Below are positions 7,133-22,994 of a DNA stretch of 42,137 bases, piece by piece. The translations under genes were made by a program, and so were the position numbers. The notes under the pieces are model-generated. The model was not told the DNA's origin. It did not search any database and saw only the letters and a list, made by a program, of their open reading frames with translations. Every line of letters starts with the position of its first letter. The stretch's first letter is position 1. This DNA comes from Spirochaetaceae bacterium (lineage in GTDB: Bacteria > Spirochaetota > Spirochaetia > UBA9216): assembly GCA_028527945.1 (NCBI GenBank), contig JAQQAK010000197.1, positions 1-42,137 of the forward strand, read 5' to 3'.

Positions 7133-8137
7133 TCAGCATATTCGGGGAAGAAGTTCTCCTCCGGGTTCAGGGAGCAATGTTTTGGCTCCTATTTCTGTTT
7201 TCATAACAACCCTTCCCGGCATTTCTGAGGTTACTTCTCCTATCACAGCAGCCTCCTTTGAATACGGAAGCTGTCTGAGAGTTTTTACTATCTGCTCGGC
7301 CTCATCCATTGGCGCAAAAACTACAAGTCGGCCTTCACAGGCAAGGTACAGTGGTTCAAGTCCCAACATTCCACAGACCCCGGCGACTTCTCCTGATACT
7401 GGAATCTCTTTTGAATCAAGACATATTCCTACATTGCTCTGGTTGGCAATTTCGTATAATACAGTTCCAACACCTCCCCTTGTTGCATCTCTTATTACAT
7501 GTAGTGTCTTTGTAACCTCGAGCATTTTCTCAACTGCTCCCCAAAGAGGAGCACAGTCACTTTTTATGCTTGTTTCAATCCCAAAATCTTCTCTGGACAA
7601 CAGAATAGAACATCCATGTCTTCCGATATCTCCAGTTACAATAACAGCGTCTCCTACACAGGCTTTACTTCCGGACAAGCTTATACCCTCTGCAAGCTGC
7701 CCAACACCGCTTGTTGTAATAAAAATATTATCAATCTGCCCCTTACCAGCGACCTTTGTGTCTCCGGCAACTATCTTCACACCTGTTTCTTTTGCCGTTT
7801 TTTCCATTGATGACGCAATTTTTTCAAGAATAGTCAGAGGAAAGCCTTCTTCAATAACAAAGGCGCAGGTCAGGTATAATGGCTTTGCTCCCATGCAGGC
7901 AAGATCGTTTACTGTCCCGCAAATACTTAGCTTGCCGATATTCCCTCCAGGAAACTCAAACGGTGAAACAATGAATCCGTCTGTTGAAAAAGCAATCTTT
8001 CCAGAGTCTATTTGAAGAATAGCCGCGTCATCTGCTGTAAGTAAGGGATTTGAGAAATGAGTTTTAAATACCTCATCTATCAGCATGGAAGTCTGTTTTC
8101 CTCCTGCCCCGTGTGCCAATGTAATATTTTTTTCCAT
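7133..8137 (-). CDS. hypE: Hydrogenase maturation protein HypE (carbamoyl dehydratase, PurM-like)
   Basis: The N-terminus is LAHGAGGK. The protein has PurM-like architecture and ends with the invariant PRIC motif carrying the cyanated cysteine. The ATG at 8137 overlaps the hypD stop (TAATG). Confidence 0.92.
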   Translation of the reverse strand: MEKNITLAHGAGGKQTSMLIDEVFKTHFSNPLLTADDAAILQIDSGKIAFSTDGFIVSPFEFPGGNIGKLSICGTVNDLACMGAKPLYLTCAFVIEEGFPLTILEKIASSMEKTAKETGVKIVAGDTKVAGKGQIDNIFITTSGVGQLAEGISLSGSKACVGDAVIVTGDIGRHGCSILLSREDFGIETSIKSDCAPLWGAVEKMLEVTKTLHVIRDATRGGVGTVLYEIANQSNVGICLDSKEIPVSGEVAGVCGMLGLEPLYLACEGRLVVFAPMDEAEQIVKTLRQLPYSKEAAVIGEVTSEMPGRVVMKTEIGAKTLLPEPGGELLPRIC

Positions 8138-9201
8138 TATAAGTTCCCTCCATATTGATAATAAGCTGAACATGCTCCCTCATTTGAAACCATGCATGCT
8201 CCAACCGGATGCTGTGGATTACAAATCTTTCCAAACAGTCCGCATTCTGTTGGTTTGCATTTGCCCTGAAGAATGTCTCCGCAGCGGCAGGCCGGATTAC
8301 TTTTTCCGGGAATCTTTGGAAGATTAAAACGTGTTCTTGCGTCAAAATCTTTGTAGTCGGCTCGGAGTTTCAAACCTGATTTTTTTATCTTACCAAGTCC
8401 ACGCCATTCTGAATCACAACTTTCCATTGTTTCGTTTACAAGTTCTTGTGCCGGTATATTTCCTTCGGATTTTACAACCCTTGGATAGCAGTTTTTGAAA
8501 AAAGGTTTACCCTTTTCTGACAGTTTGATTGCAACCGCCAAGGCCGTTAGAAGTTCATTAGCGGTAAATCCTGTCACAACTCCAGATACTCCTTCTTTTA
8601 CAAGGCTTTCACATACTGATGTGCCGGCTATTGCGTCTACATGTCCGGGATAAAGAAAGGCGTCCGCGCTGTTTTTTAGAATCTTGTATGCTTCTGGCAT
8701 TGTTTTATTTGCTACAAGTAAACTGAAGTTTTTGATTCCATCAGCCTTTGCCTTCTTTACAGCCAGGCATGATGCCGGAGTTGTTGTTTCAAATCCAACA
8801 GAAAGAAAAACTATTTCTTTATCCGGATGCTCTTTAGCGTATGATAGAGCGTCAACAGGCGAGTAGACCATCTTTATTGAGGCTCCTTTTTGTCTTGAAT
8901 CAGCAAGGCTCATTTTTGAGCCGGGAACCCTAAGGAGATCTCCAAATGTACAGATTACAGCCCTATGTTCAAGCGCCAACATAAGGCTTTCATCAATAAA
9001 GCCTACCGGTGTAACACAGACCGGGCAGCCTGGGCCTGAAATAAGTTTTATAGTGTCTGGCAGAATATTCCGTATTCCCAGACGAAATATCTCGTGGGTA
9101 TGTGTCCCGCATACCTCCATGATTCGTAGAGGTTTTCCTTTGTAGGATTCAATTATCTCTTTTGCCGACATTTTTTTATTTTCTATGCAAGCCGTCTTCA
9201 T
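8137..9201 (-). CDS. hypD: Hydrogenase maturation protein HypD
   Basis: It carries the conserved motifs MEVCGTHTH and GPGCPVCV and a C-terminal Cys-rich Fe-S region. The ATG directly abuts the hypC stop (TAAATG). Confidence 0.92.
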   Translation of the reverse strand: MKTACIENKKMSAKEIIESYKGKPLRIMEVCGTHTHEIFRLGIRNILPDTIKLISGPGCPVCVTPVGFIDESLMLALEHRAVICTFGDLLRVPGSKMSLADSRQKGASIKMVYSPVDALSYAKEHPDKEIVFLSVGFETTTPASCLAVKKAKADGIKNFSLLVANKTMPEAYKILKNSADAFLYPGHVDAIAGTSVCESLVKEGVSGVVTGFTANELLTALAVAIKLSEKGKPFFKNCYPRVVKSEGNIPAQELVNETMESCDSEWRGLGKIKKSGLKLRADYKDFDARTRFNLPKIPGKSNPACRCGDILQGKCKPTECGLFGKICNPQHPVGACMVSNEGACSAYYQYGGNL

Positions 9202-9408
9202 TTATAGTGACTCCATGATCTCATCAGTTTCATCTTCATCATTATCTGTAATCTTGGCGATTGCTATTCCGGCATGAACCATTACATAATCTCCCGGTTC
9301 CAGATCCTTTATAAGCTCTGCCGAGATCTCTCTTTTAGCTCCGGATGCGTCAATTATGGCCATTCCGTTATCAATTCCAATTACCTTTGCTGATAATCCA
9401 ACACACAT
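9202..9408 (-). CDS. hypC: Hydrogenase maturation chaperone HypC/HybG/HupF family
   Basis: The protein is 68 aa and begins MCVG, which places the essential Cys at position 2. SD AGGAGGG lies upstream. Confidence 0.9.
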   Translation of the reverse strand: MCVGLSAKVIGIDNGMAIIDASGAKREISAELIKDLEPGDYVMVHAGIAIAKITDNDEDETDEIMESL

Positions 9409-9419
9409 ATTATCCCTCC

Positions 9420-11735
9420 TTAAAATTCATGTTTTAAACTTGTCATTGCTATAACCGCCTGTCCAAGGGCTATAGCTCCATCGTTAGGCGGTGTCAGGCT
9501 GTGAAGCAGAACCTTGAAACCTTTCTTTTCAAGACTTAATACACACAAGGATGTAAGAAGCTTGTTCTGAAATACACCTCCACTCAACGCGCATGTATTT
9601 AGTCCAGTGCTGTCGCGGGATATCTTGCATCCCTCTGTAATCATTTCAGATAGAACTGAATGAAATTCAAACGCGAGCTGTTCCTTTTCTATTCCAGCAA
9701 GAACGGAATCGGTTATATGTCTAAAGAGCAGATCTGTGCTTAGCTCAAATTTTCTACCGTTTTTCGAGAGCATTTTCTTTGCCCATTCTTTTACGGGAGA
9801 TTTTGCTCCTTTAAAGTTTTCTGCCGCAAACTGCAAGGCCATAGCCGCTTCCCCTTCAAATGTTGAACATTTTTTTATAGAAAGAACTGCGCTTACAGCA
9901 TCAAAAAGTCTTCCGGAGCTTGTGGAGCTAACAGTATTAATGCCTCTATCTATTATTGCTCTTTGAATATTCATCTCTTTCTTTGTGCAGAGCTTAAGGC
10001 TGTTAATTATTTCTTCAGATTCATTTCCGTAAATTTGACATAGCATTGAGACGGCGATTTTCCATCCTTCTCTTGCTGAAGAATCTCCGCCGGGCTGAGT
10101 GAATGGGCAGATACTACCAAGCCTTTCAAAATCCCTGTAAGAAGCCCTGAGGAATTCTCCTCCCCATATACTTCCGTCTGTTCCATATCCGGTACCGTCA
10201 AAACATACGCCTATAACATCTTCCTTATAATTATTTTCTGCCATGCAGGAGGCTACGTGTGCCCAGTGGTGCTGTACCCTGATAACTGGAATATTCAGTT
10301 TTTCAGCAACCATGACCGAATTATATCCGGGATGTAAATCACAGGCTGCGATCTGTGGTTCTGCTTCAAGAAGTCCTTTCATTCTTGTTATGGACTCTTT
10401 AAGAGCAGTAATTGTTCGTATGTCTGAAAGATCTCCGACATACGGCGATAGATAAAAAAGATTGCCTTTTCCTATGCAGAATGAATTTTTCAATTCTCCG
10501 CCAATTCCTATAACCTGGCCGTTTAAGGTTTCTGACAACAGAAAAGGAAGGGGGGCGTAGCCACGAGATCGGCGAATCATATACGGTTTATGTTGAAAAA
10601 AGTCCATCACTGAATCATCAGCGCGAAGCAATATTCTTCGGTTATTAGAAAGTATTAGATCGCAGAAGCTTCTAATTTCGGAAATTGCGTCTTTGTCATT
10701 TCGGCAGATGGGCGCTCCTGATACATTACCGCTTGTCATAAGAAGGCAGTCAGTCATTTTTATATTATCATCGTATTCAAAAAGGAGCATATGTACCGGA
10801 GTGTACGGCAACATAACGCCTACAGTCGGATTATCTGGAGCAATTTGATTGCATAAGCTGCTATTAGCTTTCTTTGGTAACAGAATTATTGGTTTTTCAT
10901 GACCTGTAAGTATTTTTTCCTGCTCAGGTAGTATTGCACATTCTCTTTTTGCGGTATCTATATCGCGGAGCATAACTGCAAAGGGTTTAGTAGGGCGGTT
11001 TTTAAGACGTCGTAGACGGCTTACTGCCTTTTGATCTTTGGCATTGCAGCATAGGAGAAACCCTCCTATTCCTTTAACAGCTATAATCTTTCCTTCCATT
11101 ATTGCTTTTCTGGCTGTAGTTATGGCTTCACGATTTTTTTCTTTTTGACCTATAATATACAGTTCCGGGCCGCAGCTGTTGCAGCATACTGGTTGGGCGT
11201 CATACCTTCTTGTTTCAGAATGAGTGTATTCATATTCGCATTCATCGCACATTGGAAAGTCCGCCATGGTTGTTCGCTCTCTGTCGTATGGAAGAGATTC
11301 AAGGATGGTAAGTCTCGGCCCACAATTAGTACAGTTTATAAAAGGATGAAGGTAGCGCCTGTTGTTTTTGTCAAAGAGTTCCTCCCTGCATTTGTCGCAT
11401 GTTGCTATATCCGGAGATACAAAAATATCTCCACTTTCTTTCTTGCTATCTATTATTCTAAAACTATCAAAGAGTTCTTCTGTGGAATCATTGATTTCTA
11501 TTTTTATTATTGCTGACCTCTCCGGAGGAGTTTTTCTTAGCGCTTCTAAAAGACCTTTGATAGCAGATTCAGAGCCTTGTGCTTTTATCTCGACAAAAGA
11601 CCCTTTGTTTGCTACCCAGCCCTTTATTCCCAGTGCGCAGGCTGTTTTACTGACAAAGGGTCTAAATCCTACTCCTTGTACAATACCGTAAACACGAATA
11701 ACACGGGCAGCTGTAGCTATTAATTCCGCCTTCAT
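9420..11735 (-). CDS. hypF: Carbamoyltransferase HypF
   Basis: The 771-aa protein has an N-terminal acylphosphatase domain (VQGVGFRPF) and two CxxC...CxxC zinc-finger pairs (CDKC..CTNC, CDEC..CNSC). YrdC-like and Kae1-like C-terminal regions follow. The ATG overlaps the stop of the upstream nitrogenase-like gene (ATGA at 11732-11735). Confidence 0.93.
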   Translation of the reverse strand: MKAELIATAARVIRVYGIVQGVGFRPFVSKTACALGIKGWVANKGSFVEIKAQGSESAIKGLLEALRKTPPERSAIIKIEINDSTEELFDSFRIIDSKKESGDIFVSPDIATCDKCREELFDKNNRRYLHPFINCTNCGPRLTILESLPYDRERTTMADFPMCDECEYEYTHSETRRYDAQPVCCNSCGPELYIIGQKEKNREAITTARKAIMEGKIIAVKGIGGFLLCCNAKDQKAVSRLRRLKNRPTKPFAVMLRDIDTAKRECAILPEQEKILTGHEKPIILLPKKANSSLCNQIAPDNPTVGVMLPYTPVHMLLFEYDDNIKMTDCLLMTSGNVSGAPICRNDKDAISEIRSFCDLILSNNRRILLRADDSVMDFFQHKPYMIRRSRGYAPLPFLLSETLNGQVIGIGGELKNSFCIGKGNLFYLSPYVGDLSDIRTITALKESITRMKGLLEAEPQIAACDLHPGYNSVMVAEKLNIPVIRVQHHWAHVASCMAENNYKEDVIGVCFDGTGYGTDGSIWGGEFLRASYRDFERLGSICPFTQPGGDSSAREGWKIAVSMLCQIYGNESEEIINSLKLCTKKEMNIQRAIIDRGINTVSSTSSGRLFDAVSAVLSIKKCSTFEGEAAMALQFAAENFKGAKSPVKEWAKKMLSKNGRKFELSTDLLFRHITDSVLAGIEKEQLAFEFHSVLSEMITEGCKISRDSTGLNTCALSGGVFQNKLLTSLCVLSLEKKGFKVLLHSLTPPNDGAIALGQAVIAMTSLKHEF

Positions 11736-12778
11736 TTTTCAAGCCTTCCAGATACCGCAAAATGTGGAAAGTCAATAAATCGTCCATTATATTTTTTCAT
11801 TACACGCCTGAAAATTTCATCTCCAATAACTACATCATAATCTCCACTTTCTAAAATTCCTTTAAGCTGATCCTCTTCTGTAAGTCTGAAATCATGCTCT
11901 TGCATCAGGCTCTCTTTCAGCATAAACCATGACGCTACGGTGATATCAGCTTCTGTTTTTTTCAAGATTAAATCTCTAACACTATTGGCCGCTACCTGTT
12001 GGTGAATTATCAGTATTTTTTTCCCCTTTAATTCATAGAGCTCTTTTTGAAGGCTTTCCGGGATGGGTATGATATTAGTGATATAAGGAGTTCCAAATTT
12101 TTCTTTAAGGTATTCTGCTGCCTTAAGCCCCGATGGGGAAACTACAATATTTTTTTCTACTGCCGAAGCCTTTTTTATAAATTCAAGTCCGCTTCCCATT
12201 CCATAACAGGTTGTGTTTTTCCATCCTCTATTTTCTAAATATACTGTTATATTTTTTTCAGCTTCCAGGTTGCTGAAATCAAGAGGTGTTGCACCTATCA
12301 CGCCTGCACTTCCTTTCTTTACTGGTAGTTGTTCGACACTGAAGGTTTTAAAAAGCTCCAGATACGCTTGTTCTGCGCCCTCGTCATAATATCTGGTTCC
12401 GGTTGTTTCTATTGTTATAGACGGCAGTCCTGTGCGTTTTTCAGCCATTCGTTTCAAAGCCTTGAAGTCTGTAGCTATTACCGCCGGAACAGGGGTTCCT
12501 ACAAGGGTTGTGAAGTCTACATTTGTTTTGGACGCTGCATCCTGAAGTTTTTCAATAAGTTTGTCATCACGCCCAAGGATAGCATCTATATCGCGGAGTC
12601 CTGCACTAAAAATAGCGCTTTTTTTATGAAACCACCGCGGTTCATCAAATCCACATATATTTCCGGTACATCCTCCCGCGTCACAGATTACTGTAAGACC
12701 ACCAAGCTCGTATAAAACTGACACTGCGCCAGAAAGATCCGGAGCAAAGGGAGACAGCCGCTTTAAAAGATTATTCAT
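11732..12778 (-). CDS. Nitrogenase component-1-type oxidoreductase subunit, beta (NifK/NifN)-like, cassette 2
   Basis: It lies after a NifH-like/NifD-like pair. It shares N-terminal motifs with the 14869..16020 paralogue (SGxxSxLYELGGxTVxxDAxGC and DEPRW). At 348 aa it is shorter than canonical NifK/NifN. Confidence 0.7.
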   Translation of the reverse strand: MNNLLKRLSPFAPDLSGAVSVLYELGGLTVICDAGGCTGNICGFDEPRWFHKKSAIFSAGLRDIDAILGRDDKLIEKLQDAASKTNVDFTTLVGTPVPAVIATDFKALKRMAEKRTGLPSITIETTGTRYYDEGAEQAYLELFKTFSVEQLPVKKGSAGVIGATPLDFSNLEAEKNITVYLENRGWKNTTCYGMGSGLEFIKKASAVEKNIVVSPSGLKAAEYLKEKFGTPYITNIIPIPESLQKELYELKGKKILIIHQQVAANSVRDLILKKTEADITVASWFMLKESLMQEHDFRLTEEDQLKGILESGDYDVVIGDEIFRRVMKKYNGRFIDFPHFAVSGRLEK

Positions 12779-14072
12779 TTATTATTCCTCCTGACAAAGC
12801 TGTATTGAGACTTGTAAAAAGTCTTTTAACTCCTGAGTAACCAAACGGTTGGCGTTCTTCGTTCCAGTAGATTCCAGGACATTCTGAATGGTAATAGGCC
12901 GCGTCCTGGCCTATGAAGGCGTCTGCGTCTGAGTTTTCAGCGCTATGGTAGAGCATTGTTGGAGACAGGTTTGAATAGATTCTTGTTTCCGGACTTATAT
13001 CCGAAATCTTCTTTATATATGCGAAGTTTATCTCGCCTGCCGTCCCATAAATATCGGAGACTGAAAATCCGTAACGTATTAATGCCAGAGATAATTCAAA
13101 TGGATCCGCGTTTACCCATTCACCTACCGCAAATATACGATTACTATGCTTTTTGTAGCATTCCTCTATAGCTGAAAGGGCTTCGTCATAGTATTTTTGA
13201 TCATCAAACTTTATTCCGGCAGCCTCTCCAAATAGTTTATATTGAGTTTGAATTTTGTCGATCTGATACATTCTGTTTAATTCTATACCAGGAATTTCCA
13301 GTCTGTCTGCCATATCCTGTGCAGCGTATCTTGCCTCCTGATTAAGAATCAGATTAAAGTTTGCTTCGGACATCTTCATGTATTCATTAAAATTTTCACA
13401 TCTGGAAATTTCCCGGATTTGAGTGACACCCGCTTTTTTAAGCATGGTGTAGAGTTCACATTCATCATCAATAGGAGAAAAATATCCAAGCAGGTTAACC
13501 GATGTCGGCTTTTTGGGAGTAGGCTCAAGAAGAGAATAGATCGATTTTCTTACCGCGGCCATTGGAGGGAGCCTCCCTTCTCTAGTAAGGGCGTACATAT
13601 AGCATGGCAGAACTGGAATGCCCACAAATGCTGAGGCCTTCCGACATACCCGTTCCATATCGGTACCAAGAAGGGCGTCTACACATGTTATACAGATCAT
13701 AACAACAGATGGTGGTTGTTCACATGCTTCGCAAACTTCTTTAACGGCCTCTGGTATCTTTGAAAGATGGCGTCCTGTTACAATATCCGTTTCATCCATC
13801 AGCATATAGAAGAACTTGTCGGAATCGCCTTCTTTTCCTCCAGCCAATGTGGTGTTTCTTCCACAGCAGGCCGGAGCCGCAAGTAACATAACAGACCCTG
13901 GAATAGACAGCCCCGCGCGTTTGACTCCAAATCCCTGAGCACCAGGAGAATTAAAGGCTAGGGTTGCCGGAGAGCTGTAGATCATATGAGCTGAAGACTG
14001 AAGTTCTGCAGGAATATTATCCTGCCCCAAAGCCGCAAGTTGTTTTGCTGTGATGCTGTAAACATTATTCAT
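12771..14072 (-). CDS. Nitrogenase component-1-type oxidoreductase subunit, alpha (NifD/NifE)-like, cassette 2
   Basis: The size (~434 aa) and position after the NifH-like gene fit an alpha-like subunit. Cys-containing motifs are [16 protein letters not shown] and [10 protein letters not shown]. It is a paralogue of 16017..17348. I chose the ATG at 14072, preceded by GGAGG at 5-nt spacing; an alternative ATG lies at 14087. Confidence 0.7.
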
Positions 14073-14829
14073 TAGAGCCTCCGTCATTAATAAACTGCTC
14101 TGCCAGTTTCAGGAATATCTGGCTTACATGAAGCATTTTGTCTCCCTCTATAACGGTTTTTCCCATATCCTCATAGCGGATAATGTCGTCACTTCTTGGT
14201 ATATCAGCTATGATAGGGAGTCCGGCTTTATTAGCGAAATCAGTAACCTTTTCCTCTTCCCTTTCAACACTTCTCCGGTTCATCACAATTCCCTTAACCT
14301 TTGCGTAGCCACGATCTTCGAAGTTGTTTACTGCTGTGTTTATATTGTTTGCGGCATACAAGGCCATTTTTTCTCCTGACGTTACAATAATAATCTCCGA
14401 GGCATAGCCCTCACGTATTGGGGCCGCAAATCCACCACATACAACGTCTCCTAGCACATCATATAAAACAACATCGGGCTGATACTTCTTAAATAGTTTA
14501 AGATCCTCAAGAAGGCTGAATGTTGTAATTATTCCCCGTCCAGCGCATCCCAGACCAGGAGTAGGGCCGCCTGTTTCTATGCATAGAATCCCTTTGAACC
14601 CTTCCTTTGCAATATCTTCTATTTTTTCAGGTTCCCGGTCATATTCGCGTAAATAATTCATAACTGGCATAACAGGATTGCCGTTAAGCAGGTTTGTTGT
14701 AGAGTCAGCTTTTGGATCACATCCTATCTGAATTACTTTCTTGCCAAGAGCCGCAAAGGAGGCGGCAAGGTTGCTTGTAATAGTTGACTTTCCTATTCCG
14801 CCCTTTCCGTAAACAGCAATCTTTATCAT
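14065..14829 (-). CDS. NifH/BchL/CfbC-family ATPase ([4Fe-4S] reductase component), copy 2
   Basis: It carries P-loop GKGGIGKS and switch I CDPKADST, plus both cluster-ligand cysteine motifs (GCAGRGI and GDVVCGGF). Length is 254 aa. SD GGAGGA lies upstream. Confidence 0.9.
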
Positions 14830-14868
14830 AGTTCCTCCAGTATTTGTTTCTTTATATTCATAGGCACT

Positions 14869-16020
14869 TTAAATATCTCTAAAAACTGTAGCTTTTAGAG
14901 ATTCCTTTATCATATTGGGTATTTCGCTTCGATAGCATCTTCCGGAGAAGGCCTCATGCGGAAGTCGGTAAAACGGTACATCATTAGGGCAGATGGGCTT
15001 ATAAAGGGGGTCTGCTATAATTCCGGATGCAAGAGCAAGCTCTTTTTCCGCGCTTTCTTCGTCCGGAATTTCACCATCACTTTCTGCCTGCAATTCAGTT
15101 GATGTTTCAAGCGGACATAAAACCCTTGCCGTCTTTCCGTATTCCAGCTCAATAGCGCGTGCTAACGAACCGGAATAAATGCTTTCACCTACTATTGAAA
15201 GATTGCTCCCGTTTGTAAAACGTTCTGAACTCGGAAAGAGGTTTTCTTTGTTTTTTGAAGCTGTTCTCAATTTATCTGCGAGAACTCCAGCAAACTTTTG
15301 ACCGAATGGGACTCCGGTAACATATGGTGTTCCGAATCTCTTTTTCAACAGTTTTGCCGCGGAAAGCCCACTGTATGATATAACCAGATTTACACTGGCT
15401 CCGGCGGCGTTTTTTATATCTTCAAGGCTGCTTCCCATTCCCATACAGGAGACTGTGCTAAACCCCTCCGTGTAAAGCCATTGTTTTATAGATTTGATAC
15501 TTCCGTTTACAGAGAAATCAAGCGGTGTTGCACCCAGTATATTTACAGAATCTTTTTTTTGCGGCATGTTATCTTCTTTACAGAAGCGATTTATTATTGC
15601 CTCGAATGCTTCTGAGGCTCCTTTTAAATAAGAATGCATTCCATTTGTCTGTATACAAAAAGAAGGTATACCTGTGTTTTCTTCTATTTCTATAGCTAAT
15701 GCCTGATAATCTGTTCCAATCATCATTGCTACGGGAGCTCCACATAGGGCAATGAATTTGGGCGAAAGCTTACTTGCTGTTTCTGTAATATCTGAAACCA
15801 GCTTTGCATCATCCCCCATTATTGCCTCAGTTTCTGTGAGGGCGGAAATGTATACCATGCTGTCAATATCGTACCACCTTGGTTCATCGTGTGTTGTATA
15901 TGTCGAGTTGCATCCTGAAGCGTCATGAACTACTGTCATGCCTCCCAATTCATAGAGGGCAGAGCACACACCAGAGGTGTCTGCCGCGTATATTGGTATA
16001 ATTCTTGCGCTATGTTTCAT
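14869..16020 (-). CDS. Nitrogenase component-1-type oxidoreductase subunit, beta (NifK/NifN)-like, cassette 1
   Basis: It is a paralogue of 11732..12778 with the same N-terminal motifs (SGVCSALYELGGMTVVHDASGC, DEPRW). The ATG at 16020 overlaps the upstream stop (ATGA); the ORF-track start at 16026 is a TTG codon. Confidence 0.7.
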   Translation of the reverse strand: MKHSARIIPIYAADTSGVCSALYELGGMTVVHDASGCNSTYTTHDEPRWYDIDSMVYISALTETEAIMGDDAKLVSDITETASKLSPKFIALCGAPVAMMIGTDYQALAIEIEENTGIPSFCIQTNGMHSYLKGASEAFEAIINRFCKEDNMPQKKDSVNILGATPLDFSVNGSIKSIKQWLYTEGFSTVSCMGMGSSLEDIKNAAGASVNLVISYSGLSAAKLLKKRFGTPYVTGVPFGQKFAGVLADKLRTASKNKENLFPSSERFTNGSNLSIVGESIYSGSLARAIELEYGKTARVLCPLETSTELQAESDGEIPDEESAEKELALASGIIADPLYKPICPNDVPFYRLPHEAFSGRCYRSEIPNMIKESLKATVFRDI

Positions 16021-17348
16021 AAGCAACTCTCACATCCAAGCCCCTTATAGCTTATTAGCTCTTTTGTTTTTTTTGGCTTAAGGCTGGCCTCTATCATCAT
16101 TTCTGCTAACCGGATTATTCCGCTAAAACCGTATAGCCCTCCACCTGAGACTATGTTGACAAAATATGGTGTATTATTGAAATAGGCTGCTTTTTGACCT
16201 ATTGCAAGAACCTTTCTTTCTGGAATTTCTTTTTTAAGAAAACGCTTTTCAGGATGAACCGTTGAAGCTAATAAAATATTAGGCGCATGTTCTTTCAACC
16301 AAATAAAGTCTTCTTCTTCAGTAGCCACAAAGGCCTCGGAATAAATTTTTTCTACTCTAAAACTGTGTTCTGTCAGCAGCCTTGCCAAGCTTATTGGGCG
16401 TGGAGTCGCTGTGTAATCTATTGTTATGGGAAGATTTCCTATTTCTGTATGAGCCGCCTCAAGAGCCTTTTCTGCCTTTCTTATATCTTCTGAAAAATCC
16501 GGTATTTTCATATCTAATTCTACAGAAAGTCGTTTAAAATTCTCTGTTATTTCATGATATGAATAGCTTAAAGGTATATGCAGGTGTCTCTGTCCAAGGC
16601 GCCGTTCAAGTTCCTCTCCAGCAGCATAGGTTGTTGGAAGATATGTAATATTTACAGCACTCTCGGCCATATTAAGAAAGGCCTTGTAGCTTTTGCAGTT
16701 TGTAATGTCTTTTATCACAAAGCTGCTTTTTTTTATCATTGTAATAAGTCTACCTGATTGATCTGTCGGTCTATCATTTCCAATTATATTGATGCTTTTG
16801 CTGTTTTTAGGCACAGGTTTTAGCGGGCTATAGAGTTGTTTACGCATCAGGGCATCCGGAGTAAGACCACTCTTTCGCATAGTAGGAGTCATATAGCTTT
16901 CAATAAAGTCTACAGTTGGAAATCTTTTTTCAAGCTCTTTAAGCGTTATAGCAAAATCGCAGCATGCAAAAAGATGTACACAGCTTAAAAAAACTAATAC
17001 AACAGGAGGCAACGTTTCCATTTTATTCAAGATTTCTGTAGTTCCATTTACAATATCGTCTTCAAGACTCGCATCAAGAAAGTCGTTTTCACAGATTGAA
17101 ACCCATGACATCCTGTCCATGGCGTTCATTTCGGCAGCTGTTAAAATTACTCCACGAAGGCAGCCCTGTGCGCATATAAAAATTTGATGCGATTCAGGGA
17201 TAAGCATCCCTGTATGCACTATATTCCATGTTCCTCTTGCCGGAGCATTGTATTCCAGGCCTGTAATAAATGGTTCAGGAAAGGCTGCCTTTGCAATACT
17301 TATCTCAGGGGCTTTAGTTTCATTAATAGTTTTAAGACTTTTCAGCAT
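16017..17348 (-). CDS. Nitrogenase component-1-type oxidoreductase subunit, alpha (NifD/NifE)-like, cassette 1
   Basis: The 443-aa protein has Cys motifs [16 protein letters not shown] and [13 protein letters not shown]. Their arrangement resembles the three-Cys cluster-ligand pattern of NifD/NifE/BchN. It overlaps the NifH-like gene by 7 nt. Confidence 0.7.
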
Positions 17349-18109
17349 AATTGTTTCCTATAGTCAAGTTTCAGAAGCCTTTCCGCTATCTTCCTGTATT
17401 GTTTGGCCATTTCGCTTTCAGGAAAGGCTTCTATAACCGTCTTTCCGGTAAGTTCTGCTTCTTGAACGGTCGTGCTCCAGTCCAGCTTTCCTATAATTTT
17501 TGTTTCAAGATCTTCTGCGAGCTCTTTTACTTTAGCTGATTCATTTTTTACGTTACGGTTGTTTTGAATAAGTCCAGCAAGAGAGGCGTATCCTCTCCCC
17601 TGGAATCCCTCAACTGCCATAGCAATATTGGCCGCGGCATGAAGAGCCATATTTTCTCCCGATGTAATGATGAGAACCTTGTCTGTGTATCCTCCTCTCA
17701 TTGGCATAGAGAATCCCCCGCACACAACGTCTCCCAGAACGTCGTATAAAACTACATCCGGTTTGTATTTTTCGTACGCGCCCTTTTGAGCCAATTTCTC
17801 AAGAGCTGTAATAATTCCGCGTCCGGCACATCCTTTTCCAGGCATTGGCCCTCCCGCTTCAACACAAATAACATTACCAAAGCCCCGGCATACCATATCT
17901 TCCAAATCGAAATCGTTTTTATATTCTCTGACAAGCTCAAGAACAGTAGGTAGTTTTGTATTGGAATGAAGGCTTTTTGTAGAATCAGCCTTTGGATCAC
18001 AGCCTATCTGCATTACGCTGAGCCCTGTTTGTGAAAGTGCTGCTGCAATATTGGATGTAGTGGTGGACTTTCCTATTCCGCCTTTTCCATATACGGCTAT
18101 TTTAATCAT
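17342..18109 (-). CDS. NifH/BchL/CfbC-family ATPase ([4Fe-4S] reductase component), copy 1
   Basis: It carries P-loop [23 protein letters not shown] and GDVVCGGF. Length is 255 aa. The ATG overlaps the hydE stop (ATGA at 18106-18109). Confidence 0.9.
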
Positions 18110-19161
18110 GAATTATTCCTTCCTTTATAATCACCTCTTGAGATTTTTATGTCATACCCGATAGACGACATCCGTTTGCGCAAATCTATCATGCATCTTG
18201 ATGTTTCAACGTCAGAGTTTTGTTTGTTGTTGTAAAGCATGTATTTGCCCCTGACCCGACTGGGGGATAGATTTGGCATAATAACGTTTGCTCCTGCAAG
18301 AATACCTTTTTCCCGTCCTTCAGGATCGATAGTTCCAAGGGCTGTTGTTGCCGGCAGTAGAACATCCGGCAGCATAATTCTGCAAAGGCTAAGAAAGAAT
18401 AAACTTGTCTCAAGGCTTCCGGTTTTTTCAGCAGCAAATGGGGTGTCCTTATGGGGGATAAAAGGGCCTATACCTATCATTTCAGGATTAAAGTTTGATA
18501 GAAACTCCATATCCTTAACCATACAGTCTATATTCTGGTAGGGAGCTCCTACTATAAAACCACAACCTGTTTGATAGCCTGTATCTTTCAAGTCCTGTAG
18601 ACAGCGCATACGGTTTTTCCATGACTGCTTAGCGGGGTGCAGTGCTTTGTAGTGTTTTTCATCTGCTGTTTCATGTCTAAGCAGGTAGCGGTCTGTTCCA
18701 GCTTTAAACAGGTTTGTGTAATCTTCCGGTTTCAGCTCTCCCACTGAAAGAGTTACTGCTGAATCCGGATATTTATTTTTAATTTCAGAAACAATATCTG
18801 CCAGTTTATCAGTTGTAAAATATGGATCTTCGCCGCTTTGAAGAACAAAGGTTCTAAATCCCTGGGAATGGCCCTTTTGGCAGCAGTTAAGGATATCTTC
18901 TTTCGATAGTCTGTATCTGCCTATTTTAGAATTGGAATGCCGTATTCCACAATAATAACAGTCATTTTTGCAAAAGTTTGAAAATTCTATTACGCCGCGT
19001 ATATATATACTTTTTCCAAATTTTTGTAATACGACAGTTCTGGCAATAAAAGCTGCATATGTTCTATCCTCTTCTATCCAGCTGGATAAAAGCTTTTTCC
19101 ATTCTGAAGAAGATAGCCTTTTTTCTTTATTAAGACGATCAATTAATTCCATATTATTCAC
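18106..19161 (-). CDS. hydE: [FeFe]-hydrogenase H-cluster radical SAM maturase HydE
   Basis: The protein is BioB-like and ~350 aa, with the radical SAM motif in the HydE-typical context [17 protein letters not shown]. It sits next to hydF and the aspartase-like gene, as in known hyd maturation clusters. The listed start is GTG at 19161; an alternative ATG lies at 19152. Confidence 0.82.
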
Positions 19162-20434
19162 AGGCTGAATCTCTATTATTGTTTTTCAGAAGTATTTTTA
19201 GTTTTTCTTCCGCCTCAGAAGGTGTTTTGCTTGCTTTTACGATCTCTGCCACGGTGTCGTATCCCAGGACGGTGCTGTAGGAGGTGGCATAAGCAAATGA
19301 ACGTTTTAGAAGTTTTTCACAATTTATTTTGTTTGGAATCAAAACCGATATACATTTTTCATCAAAAATACATACCGCACGTTCCAAAAGATTCAGGCTT
19401 TCAAGCATAGAGTCGGCTATTAATGGAAAAAAGGCATTCAACTCAAATTCTCCATGAGCCGCTGCCATTGTTATCGCATTATCATTAGCAATAACTCGCA
19501 TCGCGCACTGCATAACCATTTCCGGAATTACTGGATTAACCTTCCCGGGCATTATGCTACTTCCTTTCTGCATTTCGGGAAGGGTTAACTCTCCAATTCC
19601 TCCCCTTGGCCCAGAGGCCATAAGGCGGATATCGTTTGCTATCTTCATCAGATTTACGGCAAGAGCCTTTAGCAGACCGGAAGTTTCCACAAAAACATCA
19701 TTATTCTGGGTGACATCCATTGGATATTCTGCCGAGGCAAGTCCTATGCCTGTGAGTTCCCGTAGAATCTCTATTATTCTGAAACGATACTTCCGCTCTG
19801 CGTTATCGTATCGACCTACTGCTGTTCCTCCAATGTTAACTTGCCTCAGACGTTCTTCAACCTTGTACAAGCGCCATCGGTCCCGGGCAATAGCTTGGGC
19901 ATAGGCTCCAAACTCACTTCCAAGAGTTATTGGAACAGCGTCCATCAGTTCTGTTCTTCCAAGTTTTTTTATCTCATCAAATTCCTTTTCTCTCGTCTGT
20001 AAGCTTTCCTGAAGTTTGGCACATGCATCGCTTAAATTTCGCAATAGTCTGACTGCTGCTATTCGAAGAGCTGTAGGGTAGACATCGTTTGTTGATTGTC
20101 CACGGTTTACATCGTTTAGTGGATGAACCAGTCTTCCTGTTTTTTCTGAAGCAGCCGTGGCAATGACTTCATTAAGATTCATATTTGTTGATGTTCCAGC
20201 TCCTCCCTGAAGGGCTTCTATGATAAAACTGTCATCAAATTCACCGTTGATAATTCTGTCGCATATTTCGGCTATACAATTGTACATTTCTGGTTTTATG
20301 TTAAGTTCTTCATATGTTAGAGCGGCCGCTTTCTTTACTACGGCAATAGCGTAAATCAAATTTATATTTGTTTTTTTATGATTCAAACTGAAATTATTCA
20401 TGGCTGATTCTGTTTCTTTTCCGTAATATGTCAT
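19154..20434 (-). CDS. Aspartate ammonia-lyase/class II fumarase superfamily protein (hyd-cluster-associated lyase)
   Basis: It carries the superfamily signature GSSIMPGKVNPVIPE. At 426 aa it is shorter than canonical AspA/FumC. The ATG overlaps the hydF stop (ATGA). Confidence 0.8.
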   Translation of the reverse strand: MTYYGKETESAMNNFSLNHKKTNINLIYAIAVVKKAAALTYEELNIKPEMYNCIAEICDRIINGEFDDSFIIEALQGGAGTSTNMNLNEVIATAASEKTGRLVHPLNDVNRGQSTNDVYPTALRIAAVRLLRNLSDACAKLQESLQTREKEFDEIKKLGRTELMDAVPITLGSEFGAYAQAIARDRWRLYKVEERLRQVNIGGTAVGRYDNAERKYRFRIIEILRELTGIGLASAEYPMDVTQNNDVFVETSGLLKALAVNLMKIANDIRLMASGPRGGIGELTLPEMQKGSSIMPGKVNPVIPEMVMQCAMRVIANDNAITMAAAHGEFELNAFFPLIADSMLESLNLLERAVCIFDEKCISVLIPNKINCEKLLKRSFAYATSYSTVLGYDTVAEIVKASKTPSEAEEKLKILLKNNNRDSACE

Positions 20435-21645
20435 TTGTCAGCTGGCTCCAGAACAGAGGCTAATCCGGGGAAAATAGCGATACTTCGTTTAAGTATTCCC
20501 TGCATATAAGCAATTGTTATTCCGTAATTTGTGAATGGAATCTTCTGATCCATCGAACATTTCATGCGGTAAACCATTTCTCTCCCTGTAAGCATGCAGC
20601 CGCCGCAATGTATGATTAAAGAATATTGTTCAAGCTCATCGGGAAATTCTGTTCCAGAAACTGTTTCAATAGAGATAGATTTTCCTGTGTAGTTTCTAAG
20701 CCACCGCGGGATTTTTACGCTTCCTATGTCATCGCATTGCCTATGATGGGAGCACCCCTCCGCTATAAGTACCCGGTCTCCGTCTTTCAGAAATTCTACT
20801 GCCGCAACGCCTTTGACTGCAGTGTTTAAAAAGCCTTTGTATCTGGCCATAAGTATGGAAAAGGAGGTTAGGGGAATATCTGGAGGAGTGTCGGCCGAAA
20901 CCTTCGCGAAGACCTGACTGTCTGTAATTACCATCGCAGGTTTTTCTCCAAGTTTTTCAAGGGTTCCCCTCAGTTCGAACTCTTTTACTACAATGGCCGC
21001 TGCGTCAGCCTCAAGGATATCTCTTATCGTCTGCTGCTGCGGGAGAATCAGACGCCCTTTTGGCGCAGCCTTATCAACCGGGACTACAAGTATTACGAAA
21101 TCGTCAGGATTAATAAGATCGCCAACAATCTGCAGCTTCGAATCTCTTACATCAATAGATTTGGAAATTTTTTCTTTTAGCTCATTTATTCCTGTTTTCT
21201 GAATAGCGCTTGTACATATTTCATGTGAATTATTTGTTGGTAGATTATCTTCAAGATCGCATTTATTTAGCACAACGATATAAGGAATATTTTTTTGTTT
21301 AAATATTTCAATCAGCTCTTTTTCACAACCATCTTGAGCTTCTGTAATATCTGTTACAAGAACTGCGACATCTGTTTTATTCAGAACCTGTTTTGTTTTT
21401 TTTACGCGCATTTCTCCAAGTTTTCCTGAATCGTCAAAACCTGGGGTGTCAATAATCATTACCGGGCCCATTGGCAGTAATTCCATTGCCTTGTACACCG
21501 GATCTGTTGTTGTTCCTTTTTGGTCTGAAACAAGAGCAATATCCTGATCTGTTACCGCGTTTACAATACTGGACTTTCCAGCGTTTCTTCGTCCGAAGAA
21601 TCCTATGTGTATACGATTTGCCGATGGTGTATCATTCATTCCCAT
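20431..21645 (-). CDS. hydF: [FeFe]-hydrogenase H-cluster maturation GTPase HydF
   Basis: The N-terminal GTPase G1 motif is GRRNAGKSS. The C-terminal cluster-binding motif is CSHH...(about 45 aa)...HCGGC. SD GGGGAGG lies 5-6 nt upstream of the ATG. Confidence 0.88.
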   Translation of the reverse strand: MGMNDTPSANRIHIGFFGRRNAGKSSIVNAVTDQDIALVSDQKGTTTDPVYKAMELLPMGPVMIIDTPGFDDSGKLGEMRVKKTKQVLNKTDVAVLVTDITEAQDGCEKELIEIFKQKNIPYIVVLNKCDLEDNLPTNNSHEICTSAIQKTGINELKEKISKSIDVRDSKLQIVGDLINPDDFVILVVPVDKAAPKGRLILPQQQTIRDILEADAAAIVVKEFELRGTLEKLGEKPAMVITDSQVFAKVSADTPPDIPLTSFSILMARYKGFLNTAVKGVAAVEFLKDGDRVLIAEGCSHHRQCDDIGSVKIPRWLRNYTGKSISIETVSGTEFPDELEQYSLIIHCGGCMLTGREMVYRMKCSMDQKIPFTNYGITIAYMQGILKRSIAIFPGLASVLEPADK

Positions 21646-21669
21646 GTTTACCTCCCCGTTTATAACCGC

Positions 21670-21709
21670 AAAAAAAAAGATAGCCGTACCCTGACGGATA
21701 CGGCTATCT
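21670..21709 (-). terminator. Intrinsic terminator-like hairpin plus U-run, lying between the TM1266-like gene and hydF
   Basis: The stem is a perfect 11 bp (21678-21688 pairs with 21699-21709) with a 10-nt loop. On the minus strand it is followed by nine T residues (21678-21670). The U-run ends 24 nt before the hydF ATG. Confidence 0.7.
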
Positions 21710-21846
21710 TGCGCTTTCGTGATTAATAGCTATATCGAACTTTCGTCTCAATAAAAATTTTGACGTCAGGTGATACTTTGCTTCAGGAACTTTTGTTCCC
21801 AATATATGTAACCGGGGTTTTTATGTCCCGATATTGTCTAATATTT

Positions 21847-22110
21847 TTAAGTGTCTGCCTTATTTATAATATTTGAATAGACTGTTTTGGCTGAAACACC
21901 ATTAAGTCTGCCAATCTTTCCTGCAAGATTGTTAATGATGTCCTGCGGGGCATCAATAGCGACGCTTATAATATTAACACCCTTTTCTTTGTATGGAAGC
22001 CCCATTCGCCCAATAATGTAAGAACCTGTTTCATGCAATAAGGCGTTAATCTGAGTTGCAGAATCTCTGCTCTCCGCTATTATTGAAATAACGGCTACTC
22101 TTGTTTCCAT
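21847..22110 (-). CDS. Small ACT-like protein of the TM1266 family (putative iron-only hydrogenase system regulator)
   Basis: The ~87-aa sequence METRVAVISII...SYIIGRMGLPY...VNIISVAIDAP matches my recollection of the TM1266-type family that accompanies hydE/F/G. I chose the ATG at 22110, preceded by GGAGGAAAC; the ORF-track start at 22143 falls inside the putative promoter. Confidence 0.65.
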   Translation of the reverse strand: METRVAVISIIAESRDSATQINALLHETGSYIIGRMGLPYKEKGVNIISVAIDAPQDIINNLAGKIGRLNGVSAKTVYSNIINKADT

Positions 22111-22128
22111 GTTTCCTCCATTTAAACA

Positions 22129-22156
22129 ATTATTCACACACATGGTTAAATGTCAA
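22129..22156 (-). promoter_or_regulatory. Putative sigma70-type promoter for the TM1266-like gene and the downstream operon
   Basis: On the minus strand there is a perfect -35 TTGACA (22156-22151), a 16-nt spacer and -10 AATAAT (22134-22129, 5/6 match). It lies about 20 nt upstream of the SD/ATG at 22110. Confidence 0.4.
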
Positions 22157-22179
22157 GGAATTAACTTGTAAAAAAGTTA

Positions 22180-22994
22180 TCACTTCTCAAAAAGCACTAT
22201 GCACTCGGTAATATAATTTTCCGGCCTGCTTATTAGTATTGATCCAGGGCCTTTTACAAAATGCTCAATGATTGGAAGCTTTGGTGTATATCCCTTTTTA
22301 TGGCAGTAGTTGAAAAGCCTCAGGTATGTGCTTCCCTGTCCGCCGTAGTTGCCCCTGTAAATGGTCTTGACTGCGTGAAGGTTTTCAATGCTTTTATAAT
22401 TTAGCCCTTTTATCTGAATCTCTTTATGGCTTTCCATGCCAGCTTCCATTTTTGCTCCATCTTCCTTATATTCAAGGTTATAATAAAATCAGTAGGGTTT
22501 TCCTTTTCCATAGCGGCCGGCCTTCTTGTATAACTCTTTGAAGGCTGTTCCAATTTCATCATACCTTCCGGTTAAGGGGATGAAGAGAAAGTGGGGGATA
22601 CTGACAAGGCATTCCTGAATTTCGTGGAGGCTGAAATCTCTTCGGTTTTTATTTGCTCTTCAAGGGATAAAAGTCTGTTCTCCATCTTTTTCAATTCTGA
22701 AGCCTTTAAGCGGATCTCGCTTATTTTTTCCTGTATGAAAGATTTTAGATCTTCCTCGGCCTCACACTTTTCAAGAATTGTTTTTATCTCCTTAAGAGAG
22801 AAGCCAAGCTGCTTGAGACTGATAATTGAGTTTGCCCTGTTGAAGGAATCGTTATCGTAATAGCGGTAACCGGTCATCTCATCTATCTTCACCGGAACAA
22901 GAATGCCCAGCTCGTGGTAATACCTGAGAGTCTTTACAGTCAGTCTTGTAACCTGAGAAAATTCTCCTATTGAAAGCATTGCTCCCTCCATCAA
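22180..22994 (-). pseudogene. MerR-family regulator with a GyrI-like (BmrR-type) effector domain, disrupted by a frameshift and an in-frame TGA
   Basis: The 22572..22994 ORF encodes the MerR HTH (LSIGEFSQVTRLTVKTLRYYHELGIL) plus a coiled coil. It then runs into a stop. The GyrI-like continuation (..GRYDEIGTAFKELYKKAGRYGKGKPY*) is in another frame and hits TGA at 22489-22491. The remainder continues in that same frame as ORF 22180..22449. Confidence 0.65.

Follow-up and report, generated by a model that had tools for sequence, protein, structure and literature searches.

A conserved leader RNA, predicted to act as an OFF switch, between a TM1266-type gene and hydF

Introduction

How cells control the synthesis of the H-cluster maturases HydE, HydF and HydG is essentially unknown, and the TM1266 family is called a 'regulator' only because of where its gene sits. 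The locus studied here, a stretch of 42,137 nucleotides (hereafter designated the window) that is one whole contig (JAQQAK010000197.1, assembly GCA_028527945.1) of an 82%-complete metagenome-assembled genome of a Spirochaetaceae bacterium, raises the question of why a strong intrinsic terminator should lie only 24 nt before the hydF start codon, at the head of a long operon. A preliminary description, based on the sequence alone, had proposed a conditional terminator or leader that gates hydF through hypE, belonging to no recognised riboswitch class and possibly controlled by the TM1266-like protein encoded just upstream. We therefore examined the structure, conservation and predicted alternative folds of this leader.

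Results

A strong terminator lies immediately upstream of hydF

On the minus strand, the 201-nt spacer between the TM1266-like gene (stop at 21847) and hydF ends in a perfect hairpin, AAGAUAGCCGUAUCC-GUCA-GGGUACGGCUAUCUU (21710-21677), with 15 pairs, 7 of them G-C, and a 4-nt loop. The calculated energy of the hairpin alone is about -25 kcal/mol, and the other 13 terminator-like sites found by a terminator scan of 14 kb have only 5-7 pairs. The 211-nt region folds at -60.7 kcal/mol against -40.2 +/- 3.7 for shuffled sequences (z = -5.6). Thus, the terminator reported in the preliminary description is real, although its 11-bp stem with a 10-nt loop is the outer part of the 15-bp hairpin; the feature has the stable stem and the U-tract of an intrinsic (Rho-independent) terminator, whereas transcript ends were not mapped in this study. 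The TTGAGA, TATTAA, 8-bp palindrome and GGAAC-AAAA-GUUCC hairpin named in that description are also all present. The features of the locus, all on the minus strand, are as follows.

22129-22156, promoter-like site of the TM1266-like gene (TTGACA-16-AATAAT, 11 of 12 consensus positions), the likely source of the transcript carrying the leader; this rests on the consensus match only
21847-22143, TM1266-family ACT-like protein gene, started at 22110 (87 aa) by the gene caller; PF21699 at 4e-29, TIGR03959 at 106 bits against a cut-off of 60.8, PDB 2NZC at 2.7e-12; candidate trans-acting effector
21786-21799, small hairpin GGAAC-AAAA-GUUCC
21772-21776, GUAUC, 5' strand of the closing helix P(-1), pairing with GAUAU at 21736-21732 in the minimum-free-energy (MFE) folds; in the antiterminator state GUAU pairs instead with GUAC of the terminator 3' arm
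21738-21771, sensor hairpin of 34 nt, with the invariant 5' strand CCUGACG at 21770-21764
21761-21768, palindrome TGACGTCA
21746-21751, TTGAGA
21723-21728, TATTAA
21725-21736, GAUAUAGCUAUU, 5' strand of the predicted antiterminator, pairing 11 of 12 with GAUAGCCGUAUC (21708-21697)
21677-21710, intrinsic terminator hairpin
21690-21696, terminator apex CGUCAGG, perfectly complementary to CCUGACG and forming the outer helix of the predicted extended antiterminator
21670-21678, U9 tract of the terminator
21646-21669, 24 nt between the U-tract and hydF
21643-21657, hydF ribosome-binding site GGGGAGG (21657-21651) and ATG (21645-21643)
7133-21645, the operon that the terminator would control

The downstream genes overlap or nearly abut, in the order hydF, AspA-like lyase, hydE, NifH-like, two NifD/K-like, NifH-like, two NifD/K-like, hypF, (hypC), hypD and hypE, as assigned by open reading frames and Pfam and NCBIfam profiles. 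Whatever happens at the terminator therefore gates about 14.5 kb. The same gene order recurs in Clostridium spp. and several metagenome contigs, and NifHEN-like genes next to hydrogenase maturation genes in Firmicutes were noted by Dos Santos et al. 2012 (PMC3464626). No hydG was found in this 82%-complete genome, but four HydA-like genes are present. Upstream of the cluster (22180-22994, minus strand), an ORF of 140 aa of the MerR helix-turn-helix type is followed by a separate 89-aa ORF with only a weak GyrI-like match, which looks like a split or decayed BmrR-type regulator.

The leader is conserved in related loci

The absence of the leader from related genomes had been put forward in advance as grounds for abandoning the conditional-terminator reading, and we therefore searched for homologues. 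A DNA search with the leader in 60 relatives found none, and HydF itself was not found in the 10 genomes of the same family examined. A metagenome scan with the TM1266 protein gave only 3 loci, none with a hydF leader, and a degenerate pattern scan of 301 genomes returned fewer matches than the reversed-pattern control, with only one real hit (genome G352). Searches anchored on the encoded proteins, however, found homologous leaders, so that at least 10 other loci carry one upstream of hydF or hydE (loci and genomes are designated hereafter by L and G numbers): L077 (an uncultured Ruminococcus), G352, two Clostridium genomes (L130/L131 and L132), L137 and L136, and L160 to L163. All of them sit in the same cluster type, hydF/hydE plus nitrogenase-like cassettes plus hypFCDE. 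The closest HydF proteins (77-79% identity; L132 and L137) are in a Clostridium and a metagenome contig, and the block was probably acquired horizontally by the present genome.

In most of these loci the leader starts only 22-36 nt after the TM1266 stop, which leaves no room for a promoter, and the stretch containing the GGAAC hairpin is lacking. In L136, by contrast, the leader precedes hydF although the upstream gene is divergent, and a good promoter (TTGACT-17-TACTAT) lies about 85 nt upstream of the motif. The hairpin is therefore not simply the terminator of the TM1266 gene. In Clostridium sp. MT-14 (L130/L131, 6600-6712) and in L160 (95-142), hydF has been lost, whereas the leader and a short remnant of the hydF start remain (for example ATGGGAATGAATGATAAGGGC...TGA in L160), so that the leader now heads hydE. 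U-tracts are weak in L130, L132 and L137. In L161 (4246-4385), the hydF leader keeps the sensor and the GCCGUAUC...GAUACGGC hairpin but has no U-tract, and its sensor-apex helix is extended to 13 bp, possibly representing a decayed switch that is constitutively read through.

The conserved element is a covarying hairpin with two tandem G·A loops

About 60 nt upstream of the terminator, the conserved 5' block folds, from the base, into P0 (C-G, U-A), tandem G·A/A·R, P1 (4 bp), tandem R·A/A·G, P1b (3 bp) and a variable loop of 3-5 nt; in the window these are tandem G·A/A·A, P1 CGUC/GACG, tandem A·A/A·G, P1b AAU/AUU and loop UUUU. In a hand-seeded alignment of 11 sites, 99% of cells are paired and 6 of 9 pairs show compensatory changes (P1 examples are CGUC/GACG, CGCC/GGCG, CCGC/GCGG and CGGG/CCCG), whereas registers slid by 1-3 columns pair at less than 50%. 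A covariance model built for this element (R1) found 45 hits in 856 kb of hyd loci, all on the coding-sense strand, and in 43 distinct hits 96.6% of cells are paired and 7 of 9 pairs are compensatory; this second alignment is fitted to the model, and many of the sites are related by descent. In whole genomes, hits of 30 bits or more occur only at hyd loci, and the window site (46.3 bits, E = 1e-10) is the only hit in the 3.68-Mb genome. A class-wide scan of 150 genomes with R1, which was insensitive because only 47 candidates per genome were scored, found 3 weak hits and was not used for prevalence. The closing helix P(-1) is present in the window, L130/L132 and L118, weak in L077, and absent in L137 and L136.

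Comparison with the 4227 families of Rfam 15, a check that had been suggested at the outset, gave no relevant hit at E <= 10 on 21400-22600 and nothing at the leaders of 18 related loci, the T-box, PyrR site (RF00515), known riboswitch and GA-cis families included, and full-text literature searches found no description of the motif. The PyrR consensus (ARUCCAGAGAGGYU) is absent from the hairpin, and a T-box was likewise rejected. Leader-peptide attenuation was rejected, as there is no AUG in the 201-nt leader. The element is not a kink-turn, as both internal loops are symmetric 2x2 without a 3-nt bulge, and a hammerhead-like core was rejected because, although CUGA and GAAA are present, the arrangement differs and Rfam gives no hit. 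The incidental Rfam hits in related loci were a group II intron domain next to the cluster in L137 (2213-2283, minus strand) and a Clostridiales-1 RNA downstream of the nif-like genes in L038 (8452-8622, plus strand).

The preliminary description had noted TTGAGA-17-TATTAA as promoter-like; an internal promoter here is not supported. TTGAGA and the palindrome TGACGTCA belong to the 3' and 5' strands, respectively, of the sensor hairpin; in relatives the palindrome is lost (TGACGCCG, TGACGCTG, TGACGTTG), and the putative -10 varies (TATTAA, TGTTGA, TGAATT, TAAAAA) while the 'spacer' CGAAAG..GAUAUAGC is conserved. Transcription most likely comes from the TM1266 promoter.

The hairpin recurs before hydE, hydF, hydG and TM1266 genes

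The hairpin recurs in dozens of Clostridia loci. Of the R1 hits, 17 lie before TM1266 genes, usually followed by a GCGCCUUU...GGCGC terminator; 12 lie 7-14 nt before the hydG ATG, directly abutting the Shine-Dalgarno (SD) sequence; 10 lie before hydF; and 4 lie before hydE. Many operons carry two sites, one of them before the TM1266 gene. At the hydG-type sites (L028 2523, L051 2067, L094 2527, L033 2525, L081 2510, L026 2522, L044 2239, L099/L103 2505, L068 1824, L072 2524 and L063 2519), the hairpin ends 2-5 nt before a conserved AAGAAAGGA SD sequence, with no terminator and no alternative helix, which is a probable translational version of the same control. A second copy of the sensor hairpin sits between the aspA-like gene and hydE (L136 5630-5853; L135 1917-2139), with its own TTGACA promoter and an unrelated terminator (GCUCCCUUUUC.../GAAAAGGGGGC plus U-run), and in L135 the 5' arm of that terminator pairs 11 of 12 with the sensor 3' strand. 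In L106 (2379-2500), one of the 3 loci from the metagenome scan, the motif plus a terminator precedes a TM1266 gene whose next gene, judged from its translation without comparison with a family library, looks like a FecCD/BtuC-type ABC permease; the regulon may therefore extend to metal or chelate uptake. The present genome has two more TM1266-family paralogues (contig C91, 2972-3235, and contig C475, 5059-5283; L169 and L170), one of which heads what looks like an ABC-transporter operon, and neither has a significant R1 hit upstream (best 8.3 bits).

Sensor, antiterminator and terminator are predicted to be mutually exclusive

Alternative folding of terminator and antiterminator had also been named beforehand as a point to examine. 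The transcript truncated before the 3' arm folds into the sensor plus a second hairpin of -8.8 kcal/mol, in which GAUAUAGCUAUU pairs with the terminator 5' arm (duplex z = -2.57, p = 0.017 against shuffles). Moreover, the sensor strand CCUGACG and the terminator apex CGUCAGG form a duplex of -12.7 kcal/mol. The two helices are contiguous on the 3' side and are predicted to stack into an extended antiterminator, which is the MFE fold when the transcript ends at the apex or 4 nt beyond it (-27.9 and -29.2 kcal/mol); once the 3' arm is complete, the MFE becomes the closing helix GUAUC:GAUAU plus sensor plus terminator (-42.3 against -32.9 kcal/mol). All of these structures are thermodynamic predictions, and, as the terminator is about 10 kcal/mol more stable than the antiterminator, the switch must be kinetic.

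In 9 of 10 homologous leaders, the best downstream partner of the sensor 5' strand lies at the terminator apex, in one of them with a G·U change, and this helix appears in the truncated-transcript MFE of those 9, including GC-rich leaders that have diverged elsewhere. This explains why the loop region of a terminator is conserved across leaders of very different GC content; in L161, the extended long-range helix may be constitutive. Across 31 leaders of all types, complementarity between the sensor 3' strand plus downstream region and the terminator 5' arm reaches p <= 0.05 in 13, against about 1.5 expected, and involves at least eight unrelated terminator sequences.

Discussion

The interpretation of the terminator as part of a conditional leader is supported, apart from the internal promoter. 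The analysis itself establishes the sequence features, their conservation and covariation, and the predicted alternative folds; the direction of the switch, the origin of the transcript and the effector are inferred. In the mechanism that we propose, transcription starts at the TM1266 promoter and reads through TM1266 into the leader, where the sensor hairpin forms first. If nothing holds it closed, its 5' strand would re-pair with the terminator apex while GAUAUAGCUAUU pairs with the terminator 5' arm, and RNA polymerase would read into hydF through hypE. If an effector stabilises the sensor hairpin and its closing helix, both antiterminator strands would be withheld, the 15-bp terminator would form, and transcription would stop 24 nt before hydF. 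Because the sensor and the antiterminator compete for the same nucleotides, stabilising the sensor should cause termination, that is, an OFF switch. Neither termination at about 21670 nor read-through was followed in transcript data, and the effect of any effector on termination frequency was not measured. We consider it very likely that the element is a real effector-dependent attenuator, whereas the full model with the TM1266 protein as effector is held with no more than even confidence.

Our leading guess for the effector is the TM1266-family protein itself, acting like PyrR on the pyr operon and probably binding, as a ligand-loaded oligomer, the pseudo-two-fold-symmetric element (tandem GA, 4 bp, tandem GA). 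Its gene is adjacent and is often itself preceded by the motif, the multi-site operons match the pyrR/pyrP/pyrB layout (PMC7430163), both strands of the sensor read GA-NNNN-RA, which suits a dimer, the hydG-type sites abut an unpaired SD, which suits steric block by a protein, and TM1266, with an ACT/NikR-C-like fold, has no DNA-binding domain. On the other hand, no RNA binding is known for the family and none was assayed here, and the protein is near-neutral in charge as counted from its translation. All 10 motif-bearing genomes checked encode TM1266, but 18 of 21 HydF-positive genomes do so anyway, so that co-occurrence does not discriminate, and paralogues also occur in 9 of the 10 same-family genomes in which HydF was not found. 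The main rival, less likely in our view but serious, is a true riboswitch, in which a small molecule (a pathway intermediate or product, a compound related to SAM or 5'-deoxyadenosine, an amino acid, or a metal ion) binds the hairpin directly and promotes termination, TM1266 being just another regulated gene. A conserved sensor with variable expression platforms, comprising several unrelated terminators and an SD-adjacent type, is the hallmark of riboswitches; the motif precedes TM1266 genes as well as enzyme genes; small bulged-hairpin aptamers exist, such as the nadA/NAD+-I domain and guanidine-III; and co-occurrence with TM1266 is not above the base rate. However, the conserved core is very small (about 12 invariant nucleotides in a simple hairpin with a variable loop), the hydG-type sites leave the SD unpaired in both states, so that ligand binding alone would hardly change translation, and two-fold pseudo-symmetry is more typical of protein sites.

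Other readings appear improbable. Tandem sheared G·A motifs are common protein-binding platforms and the TM1266 link rests on synteny only, so that a different RNA-binding protein, such as an L7Ae/YbxF-type GA-motif binder, or an sRNA might read the same switch; yet the confinement of strong hits to hyd/TM1266 loci argues for a dedicated rather than a general factor, and the lack of a 3-nt bulge excludes a kink-turn. Still less likely is an ordinary, somewhat leaky terminator of the TM1266 gene with constitutive read-through into hydF, the upstream conservation reflecting shared descent of a horizontally transferred cluster. The hairpin does follow a gene and has a canonical U9, the closest leaders belong to closely related clusters, and HydF was not found in the 10 same-family genomes, which suggests transfer of the whole block, but the leader is kept before hydF in L136 without a same-strand upstream gene, the sensor covaries across sites with unrelated flanks and terminators, antiterminator complementarity is enriched, and the apex stays complementary to the sensor strand in leaders of diverged GC content. 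A DNA-level element, with the inverted repeats as operators for a dimeric transcription factor and a regulated hydF promoter, is the least likely: the hairpin and TGACGTCA are palindromic in this window and TTGAGA-17-TATTAA resembles a sigma-70 promoter, but, besides the variable -10 and the unconserved palindrome, G·U pairs occur in the helices, all 45 hits are on the sense strand, sites lie inside operons 7-14 nt before the hydG ATG, and a transcript started from that promoter would still have to pass the terminator.

The closest known system is PyrR-mediated attenuation of the Bacillus subtilis pyr operon (RF00515), where the regulator is encoded by the first gene, several attenuators lie before the regulator gene and downstream genes, and the effector-bound PyrR dimer stabilises an anti-antiterminator hairpin and causes termination (PMC7430163). 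Three-state logic of sensor, antiterminator and terminator is likewise predicted here, with sites before TM1266, hydE, hydG and hydF, but the candidate protein is not a PRTase and part of the antiterminator is a long-range helix to the terminator apex. Transcriptional OFF riboswitches share the covarying sensor followed by a variable platform, the sensor strand that is also part of the antiterminator, and the occurrence of terminator-type and SD-adjacent variants, whereas here no ligand is known and the sensor is a single small hairpin with two tandem-GA loops. In the TRAP system of Bacillus, a small oligomeric ligand-sensing protein binds leader RNA to choose between terminator and antiterminator (PMC7430163), as does HutP; TRAP binds 11 single-stranded (G/U)AG triplets and HutP binds UAG repeats, while the conserved element here is a structured hairpin. 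Kink-turn/GA-motif protein sites (L7Ae, YbxF) also have tandem G·A/A·G mismatches flanking short helices, but the present loops are symmetric, and there are two of them 4 bp apart.

A more far-reaching possibility, which we regard as somewhat less likely than not, is that TM1266-family proteins, of unknown function, are a new class of ligand-sensing RNA-binding attenuation proteins that recognise a two-fold-symmetric tandem-GA hairpin and through it would switch off transcription or translation of the [FeFe]-hydrogenase maturases (hydE/F/G), of themselves and, here, of a 14.5-kb nitrogenase-like plus HypFCDE operon. For RNA biology, the element is a compact orphan motif with an unusual platform, in which the terminator apex is complementary to the sensor strand. 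For the maturases, a conserved leader switch gives a concrete, testable mechanism, consisting of RNA, terminator and a candidate protein or ligand, and a handle on the signal that the pathway senses. In this window the switch probably decides whether a large operon of unknown function, presumably for metal-cofactor assembly, which joins hydF/hydE with two nitrogenase-like cassettes and hypFCDE, is transcribed, and finding the effector could therefore also hint at what that operon makes.
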